Shown in pieces: positions 8,883-30,659 of a stretch of 30,894 bases of DNA (its first letter is position 1; every line of letters begins with the position of its first letter). The DNA comes from Vicinamibacterales bacterium (lineage in GTDB: Bacteria > Acidobacteriota > Vicinamibacteria > Vicinamibacterales > Fen-181). The notes below the pieces were generated by a model. It searched no databases and was not told where the DNA came from. It saw only the letters and a program-made list of their open reading frames with translations. Both the position numbers and the translations under genes were made by a program. The DNA lies in the NCBI GenBank assembly GCA_035348395.1, contig DAOPQX010000002.1, forward strand, positions 1-30,894. Reading direction: 5' to 3'.

Positions 8883-9650
8883 ATGCCGCTCCTGGCCGTC
8901 ACCCGCGATCTCAGCCCGTCGTTCGAGCAGTGCCAGCTCACCCATCTCGCCCGCCAGCCCATCGACCTCGCGCGCGCGCGAACGCAGCACGAGGCCTACG
9001 AGCGGTGCCTGGCCTCGCTCGGCTGCCGCGTGGAGCGGCTGCCGGCCGGCGACGACCTCCCCGACTCCGTCTTCGTCGAGGACTGCGCGATCGTGCTCGA
9101 CGAGATCGCCGTCCTCACCCGCCCCGGCGCCGCGTCCCGGCGGCCGGAGGTGCCGGCGGTCGAGGCGGCACTTCGCCCCTATCGCCCCTCGGTGCGCATC
9201 GCCGCCCCCGCCACCATCGACGGCGGCGACGTGCTTCGCGTCGGCCGCACCCTGTACGTCGGCCTCTCCACCCGGACCACCGAACTGGCGGTCGAGCAGC
9301 TCGAAGGCCTCGTCGGGCCGTTCGGATACCAGGTGGTGGCCGCCAAGGTGCACGGCTGCCTGCACCTCAAGAGCGCGGCCACCGAGGTGGCTCCGAACCT
9401 CCTCCTCGTGAACCCCGCCTGGGTCGGCGACTGGGCCCGCGCCTTCGACCGCATCGAGGTCGATCCCGCCGAGCCGTTCGCAGCCAACGCCCTCAGGGTC
9501 GGCGACGCGCTCGTCTATCCCTGCGCCTTCCCCCGGACCCGGGCGCGCCTCGAGGCCCGGGGGCTCGACGTGCGCCCGGTCGACGTCTCCGAGCTGGCCA
9601 AGGCCGAGGGGGCCGTCACCTGCTGCAGCCTCGTGTTCGAGGCCCCGTGA
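8883..9650 (+). CDS. ddaH: N(G),N(G)-dimethylarginine dimethylaminohydrolase (amidinotransferase superfamily), 255 aa
   Basis: Motifs PDSVFVED, IDGGDVL, LHLKS and SELAKAEGAVTCCSL give the Asp/His/Cys triad pattern. It is the C-terminal part of ORF 8055..9650. Confidence 0.88.
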   Translation: MPLLAVTRDLSPSFEQCQLTHLARQPIDLARARTQHEAYERCLASLGCRVERLPAGDDLPDSVFVEDCAIVLDEIAVLTRPGAASRRPEVPAVEAALRPYRPSVRIAAPATIDGGDVLRVGRTLYVGLSTRTTELAVEQLEGLVGPFGYQVVAAKVHGCLHLKSAATEVAPNLLLVNPAWVGDWARAFDRIEVDPAEPFAANALRVGDALVYPCAFPRTRARLEARGLDVRPVDVSELAKAEGAVTCCSLVFEAP

Positions 9651-9653
9651 CGC

Positions 9654-9673
9654 CTGGGGGGCCGACCCCCCAG
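9654..9673. terminator. 8-bp hairpin after the DDAH stop codon
   Basis: CTGGGGGG-CCGA-CCCCCCAG. Confidence 0.55.
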
Positions 9674-9692
9674 CCCCCAGTCCCGAGCCCCT
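9672..9692. repeat. Degenerate heptamer tandem repeat x3 (STRR-like)
   Basis: AGCCCCC AGTCCCG AGCCCCT; contains CCCCAGT. Confidence 0.55.
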
Positions 9693-11649
9693 ATTTCCGT
9701 CGCACGGCCGTCACGGTGACCTGCGACGGGTACTGCTTCGAGTGGTGCACCACGTTGTGCGCCACGACGCCGCGGCTCTCGTCGTAGTTGTTGCCGCCGG
9801 TGTTCAGATTGCGATCGAAGCGCGGGAAGTTGCTGCTCGACACCTCGATCCGCAGCCGGTGCCCCGGCGCGAAGTAGTTGCTCGTCGTCAGCGGCTGCAG
9901 CGTCACCTTGTAGACCTTTCCCGGCTGCATCCACACCGGCGCGTCGTACCCCTCCCGGTACCGCATCCGTTGGATCGACTCGTCCAGGTTGTAGGCGCGT
10001 CCGTCCGGGTACACGTCGAGCACCTTCACCGTGAAGTCGGTGTCCTTCGCGTCGGACGAGACGTACAGCGTCGGCTCGATCGGGCCGCTCAGCTCGATCC
10101 CCTGCTCGAAGGGTTCCGAGGTGTACACGAGGATGTCGTGGCGCGCCTCCATCTTCCGCTGGTCGAACGACCCCGCCGTGACCGCCGTCCCCATGCAGCA
10201 CACGTTGCCGCCGTACGAGGTCACCGGGTTCATCGGGTCGTACGTGAAGGCGTCGGGCGTGTCGGCCTCCGGCGGGCGGGCCGCCAGCACGCCGTCGCCG
10301 TGCAGCGAGTTCGCCTTGCCGCCGCTTGCCAGGTAGAACGTCATCGGGGCGGCGCCTTCCGGCGGCCACGTGGGCGACTCCTGCCACCGGTTCGACCCCA
10401 TGGTGAAGTACGTCACCTTCGGCAGGCTCTCGAGCCGGCCGCCCTTCTCCCCCTTGAGGTACCGGTCGAAGAAGCCGTAGATCACCTCCTGGTAGTCGAA
10501 GCGGGCGTCGCCCATGCTGCGCTCGCCGACGACCGTGTCCTCGGTGGCGCGAGTGTAGGCGCAGTGGGCCACCGGCGCGATGATCGCCCACTGCTGCTCC
10601 GCGATCTCGGGCCGCGCCGTCTTGCGAACGTGGTTGTAGAGGGCCAGGTTCGGGCCGACCGACACGTCGTACCACGACATGAACCACAGACCCGGCACGT
10701 TGATGGTGTCGTTGTCGTGGAAGAGCCCACCCTTGTACCAGGCCGGGTCGTTCGGCGCCCGCTGGATCATGCGGCCCCCCGTCGGCACCGGCATCGGATC
10801 GGAGAAGATTCCCCGCTGGCCGTCCACGTTCTTCAGGATGTCCTGCACCGGGAGGTGCCACAGCGCCTGCGACCAGTCCACCTGTGCGATTCGCGGCGCG
10901 AGGTCGAAGTACCGCGAGGCGGCCACCAGGTCCTCGCGAGGCATGTCGCGCGGGAACATCGGCCGCAGCTGATTCTGCTCGCCGTGGAGCCACGCGATGA
11001 AGAGCATCTGGACGGCGCCGCCGCGGTACCAGTTGCCCTGCTCGAAGTACGGCGCGACGCGGCCCACCCCGGCGCCGAACCCCTGGACGTTCATCGCGGC
11101 GTAGGCGGGGTGACCCATCGCGGCGATCGCCATCTGGTACTCCGCCGTCGACGAGCACCCGGTCGTGCCGACCCTGCCGTTCGACCACGGCTGCTTCGCG
11201 ATCCAGTCGAGGGCGTCGTAGCCGTCGGTGGTCGGCGCCCCGAGGATGTCGTAGTGCCCCTCGGAGAAGAAGTGGCCGCGCTCGTTCTGGATGACGTAGG
11301 CGTAGCCGCGCTTCACGGCGGCGAGCACCTGCGTCATGTCCCTCGGGACGCCGTTCTGCACGTCCCAGTGGTTGAAGTTGTAGGGCGTGCGGACGAAGAT
11401 CGTTGGAACCTTCGCCCCGCCGTTCCTGGGGCGATAGACGTCGGTGGCCAGGCGGACGCCGTCGCGCATCGGCATCATCACCTTGCGCTCCACCTCGGCC
11501 ACCTCCTGCAGCTCCCGCTCGGCACGCCAGCGTTGGGCGGCCTGGTCGGGGGTGAGCCCGGCCTGGCGTTGGGCGGCGAGCGAGCCGGCCATCGCGGTGG
11601 CGAGGGCGGCCAGGGCGGCGACGAGGAACCGGCGAACGGGATTGGGCAT
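9691..11649 (-). CDS. Secreted CocE/NonD family alpha/beta hydrolase (S15 peptidase/acylase-like), 652 aa
   Basis: Motifs [27 protein letters not shown], nucleophile elbow GCSS, SWYD, D.TDFTVK.LDVYPDG and [22 protein letters not shown]-terminal signal peptide [17 protein letters not shown]. Confidence 0.9.
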
Positions 11650-11781
11650 CGGGCGCTCCTCGAATGTGCGCCATACATTACAACGAACAGGCACGGCCCC
11701 GCGTCACGGGGCGGCCCGGCTCGGGGTATTCTACGGGGGCGTACGGCCCGTCCGAGCCATGAGACCTGATCCAGAAGACCC

Positions 11782-14797: not shown

Positions 14798-16123
14798 ATG
14801 AATCGACGCGACTTCATGAAGACGACGGTGGTGGCGACGGCGGCGAGCGCGATCGGGACCAGGGCTGCGGGGGCGAAGACCGTGCAGGCCAACGATCGCA
14901 TCCAGGTGGGCTACATCGGCTGCGGCGCCCGGGCACACCAGCTCATGGATGCGACCGTGGCCCAGCCCGGCATCGAGGTCGTGGGGCTGTGCGACGCCTA
15001 CGCGGGCCGGATCGAGCGGGCGCAGGCGCGGGTTGGCGGGCGGGCGCAGGTCTACCGCGACTACAAGGAGCTGCTCGCGAACCCCGCGATCGACGCGGTC
15101 TTCATCGTGACCCCCGACCACTGGCACAAGACGATGACCCTCGACGCGCTGGCCGCGAAGAAGGACATCTACATCGAGAAGCCGTTCACCTTCACGGTGG
15201 ACGACGGCGTCGCGCTGGTCGATGCCGTGAAGAAGTCGGACCGCATCCTCCAGGTGGGCAGCCAGAGCGTCAGCTCGGCGGAGTACGGCACGGTGCGCGA
15301 GCTGATCCAGGGCGGCAAGATCGGCAAGGTCGTCATGGTGCGGGCGGCCTACAACCGCAACAGCGACAGCGGGGCCTGGCTCTACCCGATCCCGCCCGAC
15401 GCCAGCCCGAAGACCGTCAACTGGGAGCAGTTTCTCGGGCCTGCGCCGAAGCGGCCCTTCGACCTGGCGCGCTTCTTCCGGTGGCGCTGCTACTGGGACT
15501 ACTCGGGCGGCGTCGCGACCGACCTGTTCGTGCACCTGGTGTCGTGGATGCACTTCGCCACCGGCGCCAAGGCGCCGAAGATGGTGGTGGCGACCGGCGA
15601 GACCTACAAGTACGGCAAGACCCACGAGGTGCCCGACACGGTCAACGCGCTGCTGACCTACCCGGAGGGGTTCACCGCCAACCTGACCTGCACCTTCAAC
15701 AACGAGCAGGGCGCCGAGTCGGGCATGGAGATTCTCGGGACCAACGGCAGCCTGGTCGTCCGCGGCGGCACGGTGACCTTCAAGCCCGAGCCGCGGCGCG
15801 AGGACAACCGGTGGGTCGTGGCCTCGTGGCCCGAGGCGATGGAGAAGGCCTACTACGACGACCCCAAGGTGCAGGCGATCGAGTCGCCGTTCCTGTGGGA
15901 TCCAAAGATGGCGGGCGGCGTCGAGACCTGGGTCGCCGAGGGGCGCGACGACACCTACACCCACATTGCGAACTTCTTCGCGTCGGTCAAGTCGCGCAAG
16001 CAGCCGGTCGAGGATGCCTTGTTCGGCCACCGCGCGGCGGCCTGCGCGCACATGGTGAACCGGTCGATCCGCGAGAAGACGTTCGTCGAGTGGGATGCCG
16101 CCAACGAGCGGATGAAGGGATAA
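14798..16123 (+). CDS. Gfo/Idh/MocA family NAD(P)-dependent oxidoreductase with a Tat signal, 441 aa
   Basis: Starts MNRRDFMK. Motifs VGYIGCGAR, VTPDHWH, YIEKP, LQVGSQ, FFRWRCYWDYSGG and DLFVH. Confidence 0.92.
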   Translation: MNRRDFMKTTVVATAASAIGTRAAGAKTVQANDRIQVGYIGCGARAHQLMDATVAQPGIEVVGLCDAYAGRIERAQARVGGRAQVYRDYKELLANPAIDAVFIVTPDHWHKTMTLDALAAKKDIYIEKPFTFTVDDGVALVDAVKKSDRILQVGSQSVSSAEYGTVRELIQGGKIGKVVMVRAAYNRNSDSGAWLYPIPPDASPKTVNWEQFLGPAPKRPFDLARFFRWRCYWDYSGGVATDLFVHLVSWMHFATGAKAPKMVVATGETYKYGKTHEVPDTVNALLTYPEGFTANLTCTFNNEQGAESGMEILGTNGSLVVRGGTVTFKPEPRREDNRWVVASWPEAMEKAYYDDPKVQAIESPFLWDPKMAGGVETWVAEGRDDTYTHIANFFASVKSRKQPVEDALFGHRAAACAHMVNRSIREKTFVEWDAANERMKG

Positions 16124-16139
16124 GAGGAGGGCAGGTCCG

Positions 16140-17033
16140 ATGATTCGCAGCCGCCGGGAATTCTTGTCCGACAGTGCCGTCGTCCTGGCAGGGGCCGCCG
16201 TGCTCGGCGACCCCGCCACCTTGTTGGCCGCCCCCCCGCCCGCGAAGTGGCCCATCGGGTGCTTCAACCGCCCGTGGGCCCAGTGGCCGTTCGCCGAGAC
16301 GCTGAAGGGTGTCAAGGCCGCCGGGTACGGCCTGACCGGCCTGCTCACCCGCACGAAGATGGACCGGTTCATCGCCGACGATGCGACGCCCGAGTACCTC
16401 GAGGGGCTGAAGGCCGCGATTGCCGCCAGCGGGGTGAAGGCGGTCATGGGGGCGCTCAGGAGCCGCCACGACGTCCCGCTGGAACAGACCACCGCCAGCC
16501 TTCACAAGCAGATCGACAACGCGGCCTTCCTCGGCCTGCAGTCGGTCATGACCTTCGGCATCGACAACCCGGCGCAGCTCGACCACTACTTCAAGGCGAT
16601 GGCCGATGCGGCCGCGTACGGCCAGGAGAAGGGCGTCCAGGTCGTGATGAAGCCGCACGGGGGCAGCAGCGGCGCCTCCGACGAGATCATCGCCGCGATG
16701 AAGAAGGTCAACCACCGCAACTTCTCCATCTGGTACGACGCCGGGAACATCATCTACTACACCGGCAAGGACCCGATCGAGGAGCTGAAGCCGATCGTCC
16801 AGTACGTCACCGGGTTCTGCGCGAAGGACTGCGGCCAGCCGAAAGGCGACGTGATGATCCAGTTCGGCACCGGCAAGGTGGACTTCAGGGGCGTCTTCAA
16901 GGTGATGAAGGACGCGGGGTTCAACGGCCCGATCATGGTCGAAGGCGTGGCCCCGGGCGAGACGCCCGAGGCGGTGGCCGCCAACGCCCGCGCCAACCGC
17001 GAGTTCCTCGAGAAGGTTCTGGCGAGCCTGTAG
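16140..17033 (+). CDS. Xylose-isomerase-like TIM-barrel protein (sugar phosphate isomerase/epimerase family) with a Tat signal and an atypical metal site
   Basis: Tat motif SRREFL. Motifs WYDAGN, AKD, FGTGKVDF and GFNGPIMVE. Confidence 0.82.
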   Translation: MIRSRREFLSDSAVVLAGAAVLGDPATLLAAPPPAKWPIGCFNRPWAQWPFAETLKGVKAAGYGLTGLLTRTKMDRFIADDATPEYLEGLKAAIAASGVKAVMGALRSRHDVPLEQTTASLHKQIDNAAFLGLQSVMTFGIDNPAQLDHYFKAMADAAAYGQEKGVQVVMKPHGGSSGASDEIIAAMKKVNHRNFSIWYDAGNIIYYTGKDPIEELKPIVQYVTGFCAKDCGQPKGDVMIQFGTGKVDFRGVFKVMKDAGFNGPIMVEGVAPGETPEAVAANARANREFLEKVLASL

Positions 17034-19447: not shown

Positions 19448-20524
19448 ATGGCACCTCTTCCGCTGATCTTCGACGCACACCTCGATCTCTCGATGAACGC
19501 GCTCGAGTGGAACCGCGACCTGCGCTGGACGGTCGACGAGATCCGCGCGTCCGAGCGGGGGATGGCCGACAAGCCCGATCGGGGGCGCGGGACCGTGTCG
19601 TTCGAGGCGATGCGCCGAGGCAACGTCGGCATCTGCGTGGCGACGTTGATCGCCCGATTCGTGCGCCCGGGGAACCAGATCCCCGGGTGGCACTCGCAGC
19701 AGCAGGCCTGGGCGCAGACGCAGGGGCAGCTGGCCTGGTACCGCGCGATGGAAGAGGCCGGCGAGATGGCGCAGATCACGACGCTCGCCGAGCTCGAGCG
19801 GCACCTGAAGCTCTGGGAAGAGGGCGGGCGCTCCGGCCCCATCGGCTACGTCCTCAGTCTTGAAGGGGCCGATTCACTGGTCTCGCTCGAGCACCTCGCC
19901 CGCGCGCACGCGCGGGGCCTGCGGGCCGTCGGCCCAGCCCATTACGGGCCCGGCATCTACGCGCAGGGAACCAACGCCTGCGGCGGGCTCGGCGTGAAGG
20001 GGCGCGAGCTGCTGAAGGAGATGGAGCGGCTGAACGTCATCCTCGACGTCAGTCACCTGTGCGACGAGAGCTTCTGGGAAAGTCTCGAGGTGTTCGGCGG
20101 GCCGGTGTGGGCGAGCCACAGCAACTGCCGCTCGCTCGTCCCGCACGTCCGGCAGTTCTCGGACGACCAGTTGAAGGCGCTCATCGAGCGTGGCGCCGTC
20201 GTCGGCGCCGCCCTCGACGCGTGGATGCTGGCTCCGGGGTGGGAGCGTGGGCGCTCGACGCCGCGGGGGATGGATGTCACCCTCGCGCGGGTCGTGGACC
20301 ACATCGACCACGTCTGCCAGCTCGCGGGCAACTCGCGGCACGCCGGCATCGGGTCCGACCTCGACGGCGCGTTCGGGACCGAGCAGTGCCCGGCCGACGT
20401 GGACACCATCGCCGACCTGCAGAAGATCCCGTCGCTCCTCGCCGCGCGCGGCTACTCGGCCGAGGACGTGGAGAACGTTCTGAGCGCCAACTACCTCAGA
20501 TTCCTGAGAGAGGCTTGGCGCTAG
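19448..20524 (+). CDS. Membrane dipeptidase family (peptidase M19) amidohydrolase
   Basis: Motifs FDAHLD, LSLEGAD, ILDVSH, WASHSN and GIGSDLDG. Confidence 0.9.
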   Translation: MAPLPLIFDAHLDLSMNALEWNRDLRWTVDEIRASERGMADKPDRGRGTVSFEAMRRGNVGICVATLIARFVRPGNQIPGWHSQQQAWAQTQGQLAWYRAMEEAGEMAQITTLAELERHLKLWEEGGRSGPIGYVLSLEGADSLVSLEHLARAHARGLRAVGPAHYGPGIYAQGTNACGGLGVKGRELLKEMERLNVILDVSHLCDESFWESLEVFGGPVWASHSNCRSLVPHVRQFSDDQLKALIERGAVVGAALDAWMLAPGWERGRSTPRGMDVTLARVVDHIDHVCQLAGNSRHAGIGSDLDGAFGTEQCPADVDTIADLQKIPSLLAARGYSAEDVENVLSANYLRFLREAWR

Positions 20525-22390
20525 TCACCGCGCGTCAAGCTCTTCGAGCCGCGACTCGGCCTCCTCGAGACCGATGCCGTGGCGAAGGCGCATCGTGGCG
20601 ACGCCAACCGGGGGCGGGTAGACCTTGCCCGCGGCGCGCCGCGGCTCGACGTACTCGACCACCTCGAACAGCGCGTGGCAGGCCGCCTCGTAGCTGACGC
20701 CCGCCAGGTCGCTGATGTAGCGCGTGGAGCGATCGATCAGCTTCAGGTTGCTCGGCACCACCCAGATCATCCGGTTCCCGAGCACCCGGCCCAGCCGTAC
20801 CATCGTGCAGGTGGACAGCGCGTTCAGCAGCATCTTCACGCCGATCCGGACCAGCGGGTCGAGCAGGAACGGCGTGTCGGCAACCGGGAGGACCACCGTC
20901 TGCCCCGCCGCCTGCGCCGCCGCCGACGTCCGCAGCCCGTGGAGGTCGGCGTGCCGGCCAACGGCGATGAGGGCGGCGTCGGCCTCGACGGCGGTGGCCG
21001 CCTCGATCTGGCGTGAGAAGGTCGAGCCGGCCTCCTTCACCAGGGGGAGGTCGGAGGTCGTCACGACCACCGTCACCGCGTCGCCGGCGCGCGTGAGCCG
21101 ATGCTGCAGGCCGTCGAGGCCGATGCGGAAGCGCATCAGGTCGTGGTGGCCGATCTCGCGCACGACCGCCGCCTGCCGGGAGGCCGCCTCGGCGTCCAGC
21201 AGCTTGCGCAGGTCGCGCTCGGTCCATTCGATGGTCTGGGGTTCGCGCCGCAGCAGCGTCCGCCACGCCCCCTCGGTCCTCTGCTCACCGGTGAACAGGA
21301 AGGCCCACGACTCGGCCGCCTCGGTGTCGTCCCACTTGCGGAACGGCGGCGTGCAGAAGGTGGGGCTCCGCTCGGTGGTGTCGGTGAGGACGTCCACCGC
21401 CAGGGTGTGCGCAAAGTACGAAGTCCGGCCGCCGCGGCGGTAGATGCGCTCCTCCGTCTCGACGAGACCGGCCAGCGGTCCCAGGATCGCGTCACCGCAA
21501 AGCGTTCCGTGCAGCGCCTCGAGCCCGGACCTGATCTCGGCCGGAACCTCCTCGGGCCGCCCGACCCCGGCCTCGTGCCTCCCGCGCTCGCCGACCAGCT
21601 CGCGCACGACCATCTCGAGGACGGTCAGCATGGCCAGCAGTTCCATGCTGGTGGCCTGCATGCGGGTCGAGCCCGTGATGGCCATCGGGCCAGAGGCGAG
21701 GTTGACCTTTTCGATGCGCGCCTCGTCGAGCACCTCGCGGCTGCGGCGGACGGGGCGAAGGTCCTCGTCGGGGTTGTTGTAGACGAAGAAGACCCGCGCC
21801 CCGGTCTCCAGGGCTTGCCAGGCCGTGCCGATGACGAACGAGGTCTCGCCCCCCTCGGTGATCGCGAAGAGCGTGTCGCCCTTCTCCAGGCCGAGGTCCT
21901 GGACCTGCCGCTGCCCGAACGGAGCAAAGTCTTCGAACCCCTCCACCGACTTGATCAGCGCGTAGTCGCCGCCGGCCATGGCGCCGCGGGTGCGGTGCTC
22001 CCACCCGCCCGGGGCGGGCTGTTCGAGGCCGCGCGCCGCCCAGTTCTGCCAGAAGGCACGCCAGGCGGCGTCGAGCTGGATGCTGAGGCGGCCGGTGGCG
22101 CCGCAGCCCGTGAAGAACAGCCTGCCGCCCCTTCGCAGCGTCTCGAGGGCAGCCGAGGCCATGCGCGCCGCCTGGCCGCTGGCCGACCATTCGCGGTACT
22201 TGTGGACCACGTCGCCGTCCACGTCGAAGAGCGCGGCCAGGCCCTCCTCGGTGCTACGGCGGGCGACCGCGCTGAGATCGGCCGTTCGCGGGTGGGCCGA
22301 CTCGGTGAGAAGCGAGCCGAGGTGGAAGTCGGATGCGATCTCGAGGAACTGCTCGGCCCGTTCGCGTGCGGTGAGGGATTGTGTCGGCAT
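20525..22390 (-). CDS. Tandem SIS-domain protein (fused MurQ-like pseudo-dimer / glucokinase regulatory protein-like), 621 aa
   Basis: First SIS domain: GGRLFFTGCGATGRL, AGGD..LIKSVEGFED and GPMAITGSTRM. Second SIS domain: DTTERSPTF, KMLLNALST, RLGRVLGNRM and PSNLKLIDR. It is about twice the length of MurQ. Confidence 0.8.
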   Translation of the reverse strand: MPTQSLTARERAEQFLEIASDFHLGSLLTESAHPRTADLSAVARRSTEEGLAALFDVDGDVVHKYREWSASGQAARMASAALETLRRGGRLFFTGCGATGRLSIQLDAAWRAFWQNWAARGLEQPAPGGWEHRTRGAMAGGDYALIKSVEGFEDFAPFGQRQVQDLGLEKGDTLFAITEGGETSFVIGTAWQALETGARVFFVYNNPDEDLRPVRRSREVLDEARIEKVNLASGPMAITGSTRMQATSMELLAMLTVLEMVVRELVGERGRHEAGVGRPEEVPAEIRSGLEALHGTLCGDAILGPLAGLVETEERIYRRGGRTSYFAHTLAVDVLTDTTERSPTFCTPPFRKWDDTEAAESWAFLFTGEQRTEGAWRTLLRREPQTIEWTERDLRKLLDAEAASRQAAVVREIGHHDLMRFRIGLDGLQHRLTRAGDAVTVVVTTSDLPLVKEAGSTFSRQIEAATAVEADAALIAVGRHADLHGLRTSAAAQAAGQTVVLPVADTPFLLDPLVRIGVKMLLNALSTCTMVRLGRVLGNRMIWVVPSNLKLIDRSTRYISDLAGVSYEAACHALFEVVEYVEPRRAAGKVYPPPVGVATMRLRHGIGLEEAESRLEELDAR

Positions 22391-22425: not shown

Positions 22426-22431
22426 ATTATA
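22426..22431 (-). promoter_or_regulatory. Consensus -10 TATAAT upstream of the GKRP-like gene
   Basis: The plus strand ATTATA at 22426-31 is TATAAT on the minus strand, 35 nt before the ATG at 22390. No clear -35 is visible. Confidence 0.5.
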
Positions 22432-22511: not shown

Positions 22512-22622
22512 ATGCCAGCGAACCTCACCCCGAGCGTGTGGGGCTCGGGCGCCTTCGACGGCCAGACCGCCCACCGCGATCACGTGCTGGCGGACGGCGA
22601 CATCGTCGAGATTCACGAGTAG
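22512..22622 (+). pseudogene. Collapsed remnant of a DRG/Obg-like TGS-domain GTPase (36 aa)
   Basis: MPANLTP|SVWGSGAFDGQTAHRDHVLADGDIVEIHE*. The first 7 residues match the recalled N-terminus of this family, and the last 29 match the TGS C-terminus. Confidence 0.65.
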
Positions 22623-22696: not shown

Positions 22697-22744
22697 TCAA
22701 TTCGTCCGTGAGGGCCCGTGGCGGCCGGTCACATAGAGGAGAGC

Positions 22745-23668
22745 ATGGCAATGTTTCGTCGAGCGACAGCGATGATCGGGGTTGCCTTGGCGCTGGTGGC
22801 GCCCGTAGCCCTCGCAGCCAGTGCGCCGGTGCAGGGGGATAGCCCGATTGGCATCTTCCTGAGGTGCACCGGGCAGGACGATCCCCTGCGCGCGCTGCAG
22901 GCGGTCAAGTCGATGGGCGTGAGCACGATCCAGGTCAGCCGTCTTCCCGACCGCTTCTACAGCCCCGAGGGGGCTCGCGAGTTCGCGGGCATGCTGCGCG
23001 ACACCGGCATCCGCGCCGACTCGGTGGTGGTCGTGTTCGACGGCGAGAGCTACCGCGACCGGGACGCTGTGGTCCGGACGGTCGGGTTTCGCCCGCTGCA
23101 CCTGATTCCCGAGCGCCTGGCGTACGCACGCCGGTGCGTCGACTTCGCGCGGGCGATCGGCGCGCGGATCGTGACGTTCCACATGGGCTTCCTGCCGGCC
23201 GATCCCGAAGACGAGGCCTACCGCGCCATGCTGAAGGCGGTCACCGACATCGCGTCGTACGCCGCGAGCCAGGACGTGACCATCTCGCTCGAGACTGGCC
23301 AGGAGACCGGCGAGCAGCTGGCCGCGTTCCTGAACGAAATCACCGTCGCGCGCGTGGGGGTCAACTTCGACCCCGCCAACCTCGTGATCTACGGTGTGGA
23401 CTCGCCGTCGCGCGCGCTGCAGCACTTCGTCACCCGGGTCACCTCGGTGCACGTAAAGGACGCGCTGCTGCCGGAGAAGCCGGGTGCGATGGGCCGTGAG
23501 GTCAGGCCCGGCGAGGGGCGCGCCGAGCTGGCCGAGTGCTTCCTGATGCTGAAGGCATCGGGCTTCCGCGGTGCACTGGTAATCGAGAACTACGTCGCCC
23601 GTGGTCTGAAGACCGACCCGATGGACGAGCTTCGCGGCGCGAAGGCCTTCATCGAGAAGACCTGGTAG
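22745..23668 (+). CDS. Exported xylose-isomerase-like TIM-barrel sugar isomerase/epimerase, 307 aa
   Basis: Signal peptide MAMFRRATAMIGVALALVAPVALA. Motifs FHMGFLP, LETGQE, VNFDPAN, HVKD and VIENY. SD GAGGAG. Confidence 0.85.
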   Translation: MAMFRRATAMIGVALALVAPVALAASAPVQGDSPIGIFLRCTGQDDPLRALQAVKSMGVSTIQVSRLPDRFYSPEGAREFAGMLRDTGIRADSVVVVFDGESYRDRDAVVRTVGFRPLHLIPERLAYARRCVDFARAIGARIVTFHMGFLPADPEDEAYRAMLKAVTDIASYAASQDVTISLETGQETGEQLAAFLNEITVARVGVNFDPANLVIYGVDSPSRALQHFVTRVTSVHVKDALLPEKPGAMGREVRPGEGRAELAECFLMLKASGFRGALVIENYVARGLKTDPMDELRGAKAFIEKTW

Positions 23669-26626: not shown

Positions 26627-27079
26627 ATGAACTTTCGAGACCTCAACCTCCGACCCAACGACCGCGAGCTCCGGCAGTTCTCGGCCCTGTGGCTCGTCGG
26701 TTTCGGCCTGCTCGGCGCGATCGTGGCCTGGCGCGCCGGCGCCTTCGCCTCGGGCATCCCTCCCGGCTGGCACGCGCCGTGGCGCCTGCCGATCGCCCTC
26801 TGGGGGATCGCGGCGATGGGGGCCGCCGTCGGCCTGGCCGTCCCCCGCGCGATCCGGCCGGTCTACGTCGCCTGGATGGTGGCCGCGTTCCCCATCGGGT
26901 GGGCCGTCAGCCAGCTGTTGCTCGCGCTGGTCTACTACGTGTTGTTCACCGCGTTCGGCCTGGTGTTTCGGATCGCCGGCCGCGACGCCCTTGGCCGGTC
27001 GTTCGATCGCGGCGCGTCGAGCTACTGGGTCGCGCGCAAGCCGGCAAGCAGCCTCGAGCGGTACTTCAGGCAGTTCTGA
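26627..27079 (+). CDS. SxtJ family membrane protein
   Basis: Starts P..RELRQF, has TM helices and ends SYWVARK....RYFRQF. It sits directly after the carbamoyltransferase. Confidence 0.85.
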   Translation: MNFRDLNLRPNDRELRQFSALWLVGFGLLGAIVAWRAGAFASGIPPGWHAPWRLPIALWGIAAMGAAVGLAVPRAIRPVYVAWMVAAFPIGWAVSQLLLALVYYVLFTAFGLVFRIAGRDALGRSFDRGASSYWVARKPASSLERYFRQF

Positions 27080-27090
27080 GAGGAACCGGG

Positions 27091-27291
27091 ATGGTGGATC
27101 GCGACTCCGTCGATCGCTTCGAGAAGGCGGCCGCCGCGCCGCGCGCGTCGCTGGCCGCCGAGCTGTGGCAGTTTCTCGCGCACAACAAGAAGTGGTGGCT
27201 GCTGCCGATCGTGATCGTGTTCGCGCTGCTGGGGGCGTTGATGCTGCTTGGCGGCACCGCGGCTGCGCCGTTCATCTACACGCTGTTCTAG
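27091..27291 (+). CDS. DUF5989 / SxtK-like small membrane protein, 66 aa
   Basis: ELWQFL..NKKWWLLPIVIV...LG......APFIYTLF*. Read manually as the end of ORF 26689..27291. Confidence 0.88.
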   Translation: MVDRDSVDRFEKAAAAPRASLAAELWQFLAHNKKWWLLPIVIVFALLGALMLLGGTAAAPFIYTLF

Positions 27292-28080
27292 GGTTCCGTC
27301 GGCGGATCTCCTTGCACGGCCCTCGACCACGCGCAGGCCCTCGGCCTGTTCCTGCACTTCAAGCTGCAGGAGACCGAGAACGACGACACTATCCGCGAGG
27401 ATCGTGGCCCCGCCCCGACGGCCCTCGACCAGGGAGAGCTGGGCGTCGAGCGGAAGCTCTACCTGCGCGAGCTGGTCGCGCGATTCGGTTACGAGCTGGC
27501 GCTCAACTGGAACCTCGGCGAGGAGAACACGCAGACACCGGATCAGCAGCGTGCGATGGCGCGCTTCATCCGTGAGACCGACCCATATCCCCACCCGATC
27601 GTCATCCACACCTACCCCCATCTGCAGGACAAGGTCTACGTTCCCCTGCTCGGCGCCCAGTCGGGGTTGAGTGGCATTTCGCTGCAGAACCACTGGCGCA
27701 CCGCCCACCAGCGCGTCCTCAAGTGGATCACCGAGTCGGAGAAGGCTGGCAGGCCCTGGGTGGTCGCCAACGACGAGCAGAACCCGCATTTCACAGGGGT
27801 GCCGCCCGATCCAGGCTACGAGGGACACGACGGCGTGGCGCGTCCCGGCAAGATCTACGTCGTCTACCTGCCCGACGGCGGCACGACCGCGCTCGATCTC
27901 GGCCCGGCGAAGGCGGAGTACAGCGTCCGGTGGTACGATCCGAGGAACGGCGGTCCGCTTCTGCCGGGCAGCGTGACCTCGGTCACGGGGCCCGGTGTTG
28001 CGACGCTCGGCCAGCCGCCTCGCGATCCCGGCGACGACTGGGTGATCCTGGTCAGGCGGCGCGGTGAGGACACGGAGTGA
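27292..28080 (+). pseudogene. 5'-truncated and internally deleted DUF5060/DUF4038-type glycosidase-like gene with a C-terminal putative collagen-binding domain
   Basis: The frame is open from 27292 with no start before 27556, yet it already reads DHAQALGLFLHFKLQETEND, ERKLYLRELVARFG and WNLGEEN. It later jumps from PPDPGYEGHDGVA directly to PGKIYVVYLP...WYDPRNGG...DWVILV. Confidence 0.6.
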
Positions 28081-28085
28081 CTCAC

Positions 28086-28955
28086 ATGAAGCACGCTCGA
28101 TCGATGCTGCTGGTCTTGCTGGTTGGGGCGGTGGGGGCGGGCGCCGCCGCGGCGCAGGGCGACGCCGACAGGAAGGAGTGGGTTCCGATCTTCAACGGGA
28201 AGAACCTCGACGGCTGGGATGTGAAGATCACCGGCCACGACCTGAACGACAACGCCGGCAACACCTTCCGGGTCGAGAACGGGGTGCTGAAGACCGCCTA
28301 CGATGCCTACGGTCAGTCGTTCGGCAACCGCTTCGGCCACCTCTTCTACCGTCAGAAGCTCTCCCACTACGTCGTGGCGGTGGAGTACCGCTTCGTCGGC
28401 GAGCAGGCGCCCGGCGCGCCCGACTGGGCGTTCCGCAACAGCGGCGTCATGGTGCACTCCCAATCGGCCCGCAGCATGACGAAGGGGCAGGACTTCCCGG
28501 TCAGCATCGAGGTGCAGCTGCTCGGCGGGCCGGAGACAGGCGAGCGCACGACCGCGAACCTGTGCACCCCCGGCACCAACGTCGAGATGGACGGCAAGCT
28601 GGTGACCCAGCACTGCGTCAACTCGACCTCCAGGACGTATCGCGGCGACCAGTGGGTGCGCGTCGAGGTCGAAGTGCTCGGCGGCGCGTCGATCAGGCAC
28701 ATCGTCGAGGGGCAGACGGTGCTCGCGTACCAGAAGCCCCAGGCCGGCGGCGGCAACGTGACCAGCGCCGACCCTTCCGTGGTAAAAGACGGGGCCCTGC
28801 TCGAGGAGGGGTACATTGCCCTTCAGAGCGAGAGTCACCCGATCGAGTTCCGGAAGGTGGAGCTGCTGAACCTCGTTGGCTGCACCGACCCGAAGGCCGC
28901 GAACTTCAAGAGCTACTACGTGAAGTCCGACAACGCCGCGTGCCGGTACCGGTAA
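28086..28955 (+). CDS. DUF1080 domain protein (3-keto-disaccharide hydrolase family), exported
   Basis: Signal peptide, then IFNGKNLDGW, NSGVM.H, SIEVQLL and GYIALQSESHPIEFRK. Cys-containing tail GCTDPKA.N. Confidence 0.9.
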   Translation: MKHARSMLLVLLVGAVGAGAAAAQGDADRKEWVPIFNGKNLDGWDVKITGHDLNDNAGNTFRVENGVLKTAYDAYGQSFGNRFGHLFYRQKLSHYVVAVEYRFVGEQAPGAPDWAFRNSGVMVHSQSARSMTKGQDFPVSIEVQLLGGPETGERTTANLCTPGTNVEMDGKLVTQHCVNSTSRTYRGDQWVRVEVEVLGGASIRHIVEGQTVLAYQKPQAGGGNVTSADPSVVKDGALLEEGYIALQSESHPIEFRKVELLNLVGCTDPKAANFKSYYVKSDNAACRYR

Positions 28956-28983
28956 GGCCACCGCACAGCTGAGCGTCCCCTCC

Positions 28984-29042
28984 GGGGTCGGGAGTAATTA
29001 GAAGTCGTGCCGGATTTCCGATTTCCAATTACTCCCGACCCC
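28984..29042. repeat. 59-bp palindromic element with 16-bp perfect terminal inverted repeats (REP/MITE-like)
   Basis: GGGGTCGGGAGTAATT(28984-99)/AATTACTCCCGACCCC(29027-42). Inner GAAGTCG/CGATTTC extends the stem, and it contains a tandem GATTTCC x2. Confidence 0.75.
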
Positions 29043-29112
29043 AATCCTTCCGTCCGTGGCACGGCCATTGCTGCGACAGAGCGCAAGCGCGTCGTGAGGG
29101 CCGGAGGACGGT

Positions 29113-29793
29113 ATGTGGAGCTATTTCGCCAAGGGCGGCCCCGTGATGTGGCCGCTTCTGGTTCTGTCGATTCTCGCCGTCGTGGTGATCGTGTGGCGGT
29201 GGCTCGCGCTTCGCGAGGCCACGAGGAACGCGGCGTCGCTGATGGCGGCCCTGAAGGAGCGGCTGCTCGCGCGCGATCCGATGGGTGCGGTGGCGGCGTG
29301 CGATGCTCACCCGGGGGCCGTGGCAAGCATCGTCCGCGCCGGCCTGCTGCGCCTCGGGCGCCCCAAGGACGAGATCGAGCTGGGGCTGCAGGATGCGTCG
29401 GCGCACGAGCTCATGGCGCTCGAGCGCGGCTTGCCCGTGCTCGCCACAGTCGCGATGGTCGCGCCCCTTCTCGGCTTCCTCGGGACCGTCACAGGGATGA
29501 TCAACTCCTTCGACGCGCTGGCGGCCGTGGGACTGAACAACCCCGCGGCCGTCGCATCCGGCATTTCCGAGGCGCTGATCACCACGGCGGCCGGCCTCAT
29601 GATCGCCATCCCCGTGCAGATGGCCTACAACTACTTCGTGGTGCGGGTGAACGTCACGGTCCGCGACATGGAGGCGGCTGCCAACCTCGTGCTCGAGGCG
29701 CTGACCGATGTCCGCTTGAGCGAGACCGGCGGCGAGCGGGCGGCTGCGCCGCGTCTCGCCGTTCCGAACCCCAACCCGGCGGCGGCGCGGTAG
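29113..29793 (+). CDS. exbB: MotA/TolQ/ExbB proton channel protein
   Basis: Motifs GGPVMWPL, APLLGFLGTVTGMI and GISEALITTAAGL. Confidence 0.92.
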   Translation: MWSYFAKGGPVMWPLLVLSILAVVVIVWRWLALREATRNAASLMAALKERLLARDPMGAVAACDAHPGAVASIVRAGLLRLGRPKDEIELGLQDASAHELMALERGLPVLATVAMVAPLLGFLGTVTGMINSFDALAAVGLNNPAAVASGISEALITTAAGLMIAIPVQMAYNYFVVRVNVTVRDMEAAANLVLEALTDVRLSETGGERAAAPRLAVPNPNPAAAR

Positions 29794-29805
29794 GAGGAGG
29801 GCCGC

Positions 29806-30231
29806 ATGCGCCTCCACAGGCCGCGCACGACGCTGCGGGGGGTGATCCCGACGGCCACGATGGCCGACATCGCCTTCCTGCTGATCATCTTCTTCATGGT
29901 CACGACGGCATACAGCCTCGATCGGACCGCGCTCGAGCTGCCCCAGACCGCCGAGCAGCAGCAGGCGCCGAAAGGGGCCGCGCTGGTCGTGATTGCGCCC
30001 GACGACACGTTCCGCTTCTCGGCCGGCGAGGAGGATGCCAAGCTCGTTGAAGGGCTGGAAGGGCTGGGGACCGCTGTCCGGCAGGTGACTGCCGCCAACA
30101 GGCTTCAGCCGTTCAGCATCAAGGCGGACAGGCGGGTGAAGTACCGCACCATCGACGCCGTGCTGGAGCAGTTGCGGCAGGCGGGGGCCGAGAACATCAC
30201 GCTGCTGTCGCGCGGGGAGAACGAGCGATGA
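29806..30231 (+). CDS. exbD: ExbD/TolR biopolymer transport protein
   Basis: IPTATMADIAFLLIIFFMV (conserved TM Asp) and IKADRRVKY. Confidence 0.9.
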   Translation: MRLHRPRTTLRGVIPTATMADIAFLLIIFFMVTTAYSLDRTALELPQTAEQQQAPKGAALVVIAPDDTFRFSAGEEDAKLVEGLEGLGTAVRQVTAANRLQPFSIKADRRVKYRTIDAVLEQLRQAGAENITLLSRGENER

Positions 30232-30659
30232 GGGTCCCGCGCCGCGAGGTGCCGTCGGAGATTCCAACCGCGTCGATGGCGGACGTGGCCTTTCTCCTGA
30301 TCATCTTCTTCCTGGTCGCTTCCTTCTACAGCGTGACGCGGGGCGTGCAGTTCTCGCTCCCGCGCCACGACGAGGCGACCGTCAACGTCGAGCCCGAGGC
30401 GTCGGTGCTCGTCGAGATCGCGCCCGACGCCTCGCTGCGGGTGGACGGGCGTTCGATGCCGCTCGCCCACCTGCCCGGCTACCTGCGGCCCAGGCTGGTG
30501 GCGAACCCGGCGAAGCCGGTGATCATCCGGACCGACCTGGACGCGTCGTACTCGGCGATGACCGACGTGTTCGACGAACTCCGCCAGGCCGGTGTCCGCA
30601 ACGTCGTCATCCCTACGCAGGCCGAGCTTGCGTTGTACGGGCTGGAGGGACAGCGGTGA
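30228..30659 (+). CDS. exbD: Second ExbD/TolR protein
   Basis: IPTASMADVAFLLIIFFLV. It overlaps the preceding gene at ATGA. Confidence 0.9.
   Translation: MRVPRREVPSEIPTASMADVAFLLIIFFLVASFYSVTRGVQFSLPRHDEATVNVEPEASVLVEIAPDASLRVDGRSMPLAHLPGYLRPRLVANPAKPVIIRTDLDASYSAMTDVFDELRQAGVRNVVIPTQAELALYGLEGQR

Follow-up and report, generated by a model that had tools for sequence, protein, structure and literature searches.

A bacterial two-SIS protein with the full domain architecture of glucokinase regulatory protein and the catalytic motifs of MurQ

We analysed a 30,894-nucleotide stretch of DNA from a soil bacterium of the Vicinamibacterales (GenBank assembly GCA_035348395.1, contig DAOPQX010000002.1, positions 1 to 30,894; hereafter the window), which carries a gene for a 621-residue protein with two SIS domains. 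This two-SIS protein has the full architecture of glucokinase regulatory protein (GKRP, gene GCKR) and is closest in sequence to MurQ, the N-acetylmuramic acid (MurNAc) 6-phosphate etherase. The family to which it belongs, so far uncharacterised, is a bacterial variation on MurQ/GKRP. We favour, with moderate confidence, the reading that the protein is a cytoplasmic, single-chain (monomeric) sugar-phosphate etherase or lyase of the MurQ type, and a catalytic rather than a kinase-regulatory role is most likely. The list of open reading frames (ORFs) and its translations bear out the initial annotation of a 621-residue protein: a single ORF of 621 codons plus stop occupies positions 20525–22390, on the minus strand, which that annotation had left unstated (ATG at 22390, stop at 20525–20527). 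Homologues align from residues 1–5 through to the C-terminus.

Architecture, motifs and family

We built an AlphaFold2 model of the protein from an alignment of 42 homologues and without templates, GKRP structures having been part of the AlphaFold training. The model has a mean predicted local distance difference test (pLDDT) score of 94.6 and a predicted template-modelling (pTM) score of 0.94. A Foldseek search of the PDB and of the Swiss-Prot AlphaFold models returned GKRP as the best full-length match (E 1e-21, TM 0.69–0.74), with residues 27–620 of the query aligned to residues 29–596 of GCKR. Superposition on GKRP (PDB ID: 4BB9) with VIA-align gave a Z of 38.4 and a root mean square deviation of 2.9 Å across 521 residues at 19% identity, pairing residues 15–621 of the model with residues 6–599 of the chain, while MurQ alone gave a Z of 22. 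Because this full-length match tops those of both MurQ and the double-SIS enzymes, the full GKRP architecture is confirmed, and the end-to-end collinearity with GCKR that had been proposed is borne out by both comparisons, far beyond chance.

The chain begins with a helix (residues 1–21; 22328–22390, on the minus strand as are all segments given here) packed against the lid, in the manner of the GKRP N-terminus; it spans residues 8–21 in the model, and the VIA-align superposition starts by pairing residue 15 with GKRP residue 6. SIS-1 (residues 22–262; 21605–22327) is a MurQ-like sugar-phosphate-binding domain, matched by MurQ (PDB ID: 4S12) at residues 22–249 and by the NCBIfam MurQ models at residues 25–261. 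It contains the first phosphate-binding loop, GCGATGRL (residues 95–102; 22085–22108), which aligns with GAGTSGRL of MurQ and GGGTSGRM of GKRP; the MurQ-type acidic catalytic motif EGFED (residues 150–154; 21929–21943), which aligns with EGAED and EGTED, respectively; and the conserved loop that ends the domain, GSTRMQ (residues 240–245; 21656–21673), which aligns with GSTRMK and GSSRMK. Linker helices and SIS-2 (residues 263–512; 20855–21604), recognised by their fold, are inserted between SIS-1 and the lid. SIS-2 carries DTTERSPTF (residues 337–345; 21356–21382), identified by conservation and spacing as the counterpart of MurQ DASECPPTF: its distance from the first strand of the domain equals that of the MurQ motif and that of MDAVECVPTY in SIS-2 of Xenopus GKRP. 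The C-terminal lid (residues 513–621; 20528–20854) holds K519 and the blocks KMLLNALST, LGNRM and SNLKLIDR and is matched by the lids of MurQ and GKRP, with residues 518–583 corresponding to residues 204–269 of MurQ 4S12.

Conservation was assessed across the 42 homologues, which are 32–86% identical to the 621-residue protein. Invariant positions include C96, G97, G100 and R101 of the phosphate loop; E150, E153 and D154 of EGFED (42 of 42); G240, S241, T242, R243 and Q245 of GSTRMQ; D337, E340, R341, P343 and T344 of DTTERSPTF; and K519, N523, S526, N539, M541, N548, K550, D553 and R554 of the lid. Taken as a set, E150, E153, D154, E340, K519 and the loops G95–R101 and G240–R243 are invariant or nearly so. 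Near the site, the invariant residues C96, D142 and E179 are specific to the family and absent from MurQ. Throughout the family, DxxExxPTF is absent from SIS-1, where LLExxWRxFW stands in its place; the stretch that holds it, from the GRL loop to the GGD motif, exceeds that of MurQ or GKRP by 13 residues. SIS-2, for its part, shows no conserved EGxED. The split of the two acidic motifs, EGxED in the first half only and DxxExxPTF in the second half only, had been noted for the single protein and holds family-wide. Together, the split and the invariance form the pattern expected if one composite site of the MurQ dimer survives in the fused chain. All motifs that the initial annotation quoted for the protein are present, and the GKRP strings that it paired with them (ITEKSNPLTQDL, GGLVVLSGGGTSGRM, AGGDRSVVASREGTED, GFNP, GPEGLSGSSRMK, DGVECIHTF, KWVLNTVST, LGKILQNHM and SNSKL) were recovered in HMMER alignments with the human and Xenopus chains. 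One pairing needed correction: YNNP and GFNP both exist, but HMMER aligns YNNP to RNDP of GKRP.

The two halves had also been described as both MurQ-like, which is true of the first half and, for the second, of fold and motif but not of sequence. Folded alone, SIS-2 (residues 263–512) adopted a SIS fold with a pLDDT of 90.3. An exhaustive structural search with this domain placed SIS-2 of Xenopus GKRP (residues 280–475) first (Z 13.9, 183 residues aligned), followed by MurQ (Z 12.5) and other SIS proteins (Z ≤11.2); Foldseek ranked MurQ first (E 2e-4) and GKRP slightly lower. At the sequence level, no match emerged from a BLASTP comparison of the two halves or from hhalign between the family profiles of SIS-2 and SIS-1 (probability 2.3%), and a PDB search with the SIS-2 profile gave ribosomal matches due to chance alone, with neither MurQ nor GKRP among them. 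These searches rule out an internal duplication detectable by sequence, leaving the fold and one short motif as the only visible traces of the SIS-domain duplication.

In a phmmer search of PDB sequences, MurQ 4S12 was matched in two pieces, residues 22–249 and 518–583 (97.9 bits), with an insert of ∼268 residues between them, and the family profile scored 165.7 bits against MurQ, the closest relative by sequence. The GKRP chains came next (E 7e-8; human 34.6 bits, Xenopus 19.9 bits), and the double-SIS enzymes GlmS-C, NagB-II, AgaS and FrlB gave no significant sequence match. By sequence, then, the protein groups with MurQ (97.9 bits) and not with GKRP (34.6 bits). The NCBIfam MurQ models NF003915 and TIGR00274 each match in two stretches, at 152.2 bits (cut-off 168) and 120.7 bits (cut-off 302). 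Of the Pfam GKRP models, GKRP_SIS_N matches residues 78–189 at 34 bits (cut-off 27), a model that ordinary MurQ matches too (the MurQ of the source genome scores 72 bits); GKRP-like_C (PF20741) is sub-threshold at residues 539–579 (15.3 bits, cut-off 27.7); and GKRP_SIS_2 (PF22198) has no match in the protein.

The family is large. Scanning all 1.84 billion cluster representatives with HMMER returned 453 clusters at an E-value of 1e-30 or better, the majority of those listed being full-length (500–630 residues), and relatives occur in at least 582 species-level genomes (one genome per species). Among the matches listed, the carriers are mainly Verrucomicrobiota (Limisphaerales), Acidobacteriota (Vicinamibacterales), Armatimonadota (including Chthonomonas) and Planctomycetota. 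One carrier is a metagenome-assembled genome labelled Chthonomonas calidirosea, a species that is in culture. Database names for members are ‘N-acetylmuramic acid 6-phosphate etherase’, ‘sugar phosphate isomerase’, ‘hypothetical protein’ or none, and no paper on the bacterial two-SIS members came up in the literature searched.

Function and competing explanations

Conserved residues and model together fit a single composite active site formed by the SIS-1 loops and EGFED, the SIS-2 glutamate and the lid lysine. Fold and conservation assign the loops that bind phosphate and the acid/base motif EGFED to SIS-1, the second catalytic glutamate (E340), which in the MurQ dimer comes from the partner subunit, to SIS-2, and K519 to the C-terminal lid; the second, pseudo-symmetric site has decayed. 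A 6-phospho-sugar would probably be bound in its open-chain form, and chemistry of the MurQ type would proceed by abstraction of the C2 proton, elimination of the 3-O substituent and re-hydration. One candidate substrate is MurNAc-6-phosphate, which would yield N-acetylglucosamine (GlcNAc) 6-phosphate and D-lactate; a related 3-O-substituted (amino)sugar phosphate released by polysaccharide breakdown is equally possible. That the acid/base residues are invariant argues for catalysis and not for binding alone. There is also a eukaryotic precedent, as MurNAc-6-phosphate etherase activity is reported for proteins of GKRP architecture from the non-vertebrate eukaryotes Naegleria and lancelet (10.64898/2026.05.08.723886). 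The initial annotation had offered an etherase or isomerase as one of two alternatives, and it is this one that gains support from the invariant MurQ-type residues, the eukaryotic precedent and the fusions and neighbours that involve carbohydrate enzymes.

The fusion partners of two-SIS proteins are GH2, DUF4838/GH67N, GlcNAc 2-epimerase, a GDSL esterase and DUF6259. In one lineage, a gene for a 240-residue transaldolase/fructose-6-phosphate aldolase (FSA) comes 33 nucleotides after the two-SIS gene (L099:6001–8598). On the upstream side of this locus is a divergently oriented nagA, with its NagA_N domain, and a DeoR regulator is close by; it is only in this lineage that nagA is adjacent. In another lineage, an aldo-keto reductase, a GH141 enzyme and a GlcNAc 2-epimerase adjoin the gene. 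At six Verrucomicrobial loci, whose two-SIS proteins are 58–78% identical among themselves, the divergent neighbour encodes a YdiJ-like D-2-hydroxyacid dehydrogenase of the flavin adenine dinucleotide (FAD)/iron–sulfur type (L023:5111–7936, minus strand, and the same position in L025, L036, L046, L070 and L080). This ∼940-residue protein has FAD_binding_4, FAD-oxidase_C, 4Fe-4S and CCG domains, and its best NCBIfam match, the D-2-hydroxyglutarate dehydrogenase YdiJ, is below the cut-off. The two genes stand head to head, with starts that are close or slightly overlapping by crude ORF calls. The dehydrogenase may oxidise a released D-2-hydroxy acid, and its divergent placement would fit the release of D-lactate. 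These local neighbour and fusion clues all point to sugar catabolism. Across the family as a whole, an all-against-all comparison of ORFs in 80 loci led us to reject a conserved gene neighbourhood: no partner gene occurs in more than 18 of the loci, and the commonest neighbours are housekeeping or unrelated genes (frr, thpR, an aldo-keto reductase and mnmE).

Several observations weigh against a MurQ-type etherase. The protein scores under every NCBIfam MurQ cut-off, and we found no family member that has been assayed or characterised. The source genome also encodes a canonical MurQ (364 bits), on another contig. Among 81 Verrucomicrobiota genomes sampled evenly, in which the two-SIS type was recognised by its split-match signature, 25 have the two-SIS type and 12 canonical MurQ, with both present in 4 where chance expects 3.7. 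AnmK was found in one of six carrier genomes. None of the 80 loci comparisons gave a conserved kinase, transporter or nagA/nagB neighbour, and the fusion partners rest on metagenomic gene calls, among which miscalls are possible. A link to anhydro-MurNAc recycling was considered and rejected, AnmK being mostly not found in the six carriers.

Canonical MurQ is present in 17 of 47 other carrier genomes and was not found in 30, absences that are provisional because the carriers are metagenome-assembled genomes. In 61 Acidobacteriota genomes, canonical MurQ occurs in 20 (a count that takes in one unpublished genome, G023, on which no other result depends) and the two-SIS type in 2. The two-SIS gene and canonical MurQ look independent: neither excludes or requires the other, a pattern that tells against simple redundancy.

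Some canonical MurQs of the Verrucomicrobiota and Acidobacteriota stand behind a BadF/BadG-type (MurK-like) or ROK kinase in chains of 538–601 residues (L106:1998–3803, minus strand; L107:1039–2790, plus; L108:1030–2778, plus; L109:1994–3610, minus). These would be single-chain kinase–etherase enzymes. Matches to ‘canonical’ MurQ of ∼600 residues had been considered as a second fused type; this was rejected when they proved to be kinase–MurQ fusions.

Of the competing explanations, the nearest is that the protein is a second MurNAc-6-phosphate etherase, a single-chain MurQ isozyme in peptidoglycan recycling or scavenging. We entertain this tentatively. The catalytic motifs are retained, eukaryotic GKRP-like proteins of like architecture are reported to have this very activity (10.64898/2026.05.08.723886), and in 30 of the 48 carriers examined no canonical MurQ was found, so that the two-SIS protein is the sole MurQ homologue there; the nagA neighbour in one lineage and the D-2-hydroxyacid dehydrogenase at six loci would suit it too. 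The lack of mutual exclusion with MurQ, with both in the source genome and co-occurrence at the chance level in Verrucomicrobiota, does not, and nor does the scarcity of AnmK. Canonical MurQ of these phyla is in several cases joined to a sugar kinase (BadF/BadG-type or ROK), a link that the two-SIS type lacks; a long branch separates the two-SIS family from MurQ; and the invariant C96, D142 and E179 have no equivalent in MurQ. An aldose–ketose isomerase, deaminase or deglycase like the GlmS isomerase domain, NagB-II, AgaS or FrlB seems unlikely. Such double-SIS enzymes are the next-best structural matches (Z 22–25), NCBI labels one family member ‘sugar phosphate isomerase’, and two genes for xylose-isomerase-like TIM barrels lie near by in the window, but GKRP and MurQ are clearly nearer in both sequence and fold, and these isomerases are without the lid, EGxED and DxxExxPTF that are the invariant features of the family.

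The initial annotation's other alternative, a sugar-phosphate sensor that would regulate a kinase by protein contact, fares worst, and we regard such a sensor, non-catalytic and acting on a sugar kinase or another partner as vertebrate GKRP does, as very improbable. The architecture and ligand-site motifs are those of GKRP, the gene is usually solitary and without pathway neighbours, and the source genome has a Glk-type glucokinase gene, on a different contig; as had been stated, there is none in the window. Against these points, glucokinase inhibition is reported as a trait of the GKRP of jawed vertebrates only, the earlier-branching GKRPs being enzymes (10.64898/2026.05.08.723886). The invariant catalytic glutamates favour catalysis, no kinase is a conserved neighbour, and ordinary MurQ is more GKRP-like than the two-SIS protein. 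Glk-type glucokinase is present in two of five other carriers and was not found in the remaining three, one of which is a complete chromosome; we rejected a link to this glucokinase on that account. A MurQ-type etherase or lyase acting on a sugar phosphate is thus the reading that we retain.

Genomic setting of the gene

The source genome is 86% complete, in 452 contigs. The two-SIS gene converges on a gene for an M19 peptidase (19448–20524, plus strand), the stops of the two genes abutting with 0 intergenic bases, and a terminator scan found no terminator-like hairpin at this junction. The peptidase gene closes a plus-strand block that includes a GH127 glycosidase, the two xylose-isomerase-like TIM-barrel genes and a GntP permease, so the convergence on a sugar-catabolic block was correctly described, with the peptidase gene ending at 20524. 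The arrangement of the GntP, M19 peptidase and two TIM-barrel genes is kept in a relative at 85–86% identity and lost at 70% identity. The gene had also been credited with its own TATAAT promoter. Reading the sequence directly, a TATAAT hexamer that is a possible −10 box does lie 35 nucleotides 5′ of the ATG (22426–22431, minus strand), but a promoter consensus scan found no −35/−10 pair.

A 36-codon ORF at 22512–22622 (plus strand) consists of MPANLTP and a 28-residue tail. It matches residues 34–40 and 333–360 of a 360-residue MMR_HSR1/TGS GTPase at the locus (L006) of the 85–86% identical relative; the tail is 96% identical to that GTPase, and the position is the same in both loci. The ORF looks like the product of an in-frame deletion of ∼290 codons, or of an assembly collapse. 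The ORFs at 14989–16143 (plus), 22697–23452 (minus), 9515–11674 (minus) and 27022–30267 (minus) have no Pfam match, and the first two have no NCBIfam match either; some such long ORFs in this high-GC window may be shadow frames and not genes.

Origin and comparison with known systems

We built a tree from SIS-1 plus the lid, using 42 sequences of the two-SIS family and, from the same phyla, 16 of canonical MurQ, all bacterial. A single branch (length 2.7) separates the two groups with support of 100/100, which fits one old origin of the bacterial two-SIS family. At this origin, a SIS domain would have been inserted or duplicated within a MurQ-like gene. The suggestion that the protein lies on the line of descent from MurQ to GKRP gains no support from the comparisons made, as the MurQ of the source genome outscores it against GKRP (68.9 bits against 34.6 for the human chain, 90.7 against 19.9 for Xenopus) and the 13-residue insertion of the family is not in GKRP. 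The match of this MurQ to Xenopus GKRP includes a 15.9-bit stretch within GKRP SIS-2, and we saw no insertions or deletions shared by GKRP and the two-SIS family. Because the MurQ–GKRP scores exceed the two-SIS–GKRP scores, MurQ appears as a hub from which GKRP and the two-SIS family extend as separate long branches.

In the bacterial family, the GKRP architecture may have arisen separately from that of eukaryotes. When the SIS segment of a MurQ-like gene is duplicated, the order SIS–SIS–lid follows directly; and if, as the GKRP site suggests, the lid and the partner glutamate act at the site of the neighbouring domain, the site that survives would be forced each time, which we infer makes an independent origin plausible. 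The alternative is one bacterial SIS–SIS–lid fusion, with eukaryotes acquiring GKRP already fused from a two-SIS relative. The identical architecture favours this, as does SIS-2 alone, which is slightly nearer to GKRP SIS-2 (Z 13.9) than to MurQ (Z 12.5), but the sequence of GKRP is nearer to canonical MurQ than to the two-SIS family and there are no common indels, and we consider a shared fusion doubtful.

GKRP is the classic example of an enzyme that became a regulator, and it is a target of drugs and of genome-wide association studies. The two-SIS family is a natural comparison for the change from a two-site homodimeric enzyme to a one-site single chain, and it makes the place and number of SIS–SIS–lid fusions testable. 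It is common in Verrucomicrobiota, Acidobacteriota, Armatimonadota and Planctomycetota, and its substrate could mark an undescribed catabolic step for amino sugars or polysaccharides; the automatic annotation ‘MurNAc-6-phosphate etherase’ is a label without evidence.

Compared with GKRP (human, rat and Xenopus; PDB IDs: 4BB9, 4BBA, 3W0L, 4LY9 and 4LC9), the two-SIS protein has the same order of N-terminal helix, SIS-1, SIS-2 and C-terminal lid and the same split of motifs, with EGxED in SIS-1, D..E...TF in SIS-2 and a lysine in the lid. However, the two are only 15–19% identical, and the phmmer score of the two-SIS protein against GKRP is about half or less of that of canonical MurQ. The 13-residue insertion in SIS-1 is missing from GKRP and MurQ alike, and the two-SIS protein is bacterial and shows no evidence of a kinase partner. 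The double-SIS enzymes (GlmS isomerase domain, NagB-II, AgaS and FrlB/FraB) also form a pseudo-dimer of tandem SIS domains and superpose at Z 22–25 over ∼320–350 residues, but at ∼10–13% identity and without the MurQ-type lid, EGxED or DxxExxPTF they are weaker matches than GKRP.

MurQ (EC 4.2.1.126; PDB IDs: 4S12, 4LZJ and 1NRI) is collinear with the two-SIS protein over SIS-1 and the lid, and its catalytic and phosphate-binding motifs are conserved. At ∼300 residues it has one SIS domain and the lid, whereas the two-SIS protein is twice as long, with a SIS-2 of ∼250 residues between the two. MurQ is a homodimer with two sites and the two-SIS protein presumably a monomer with one predicted site. 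In E. coli MurQ, we take the catalytic glutamates to be Glu83 in DASEC and Glu114 in EGAED. Both types of motif are kept and invariant in the two-SIS family, but they are divided across domains: E150 and E153 remain in SIS-1, while the DASEC-type glutamate is gone from SIS-1 and is provided by SIS-2 as E340.

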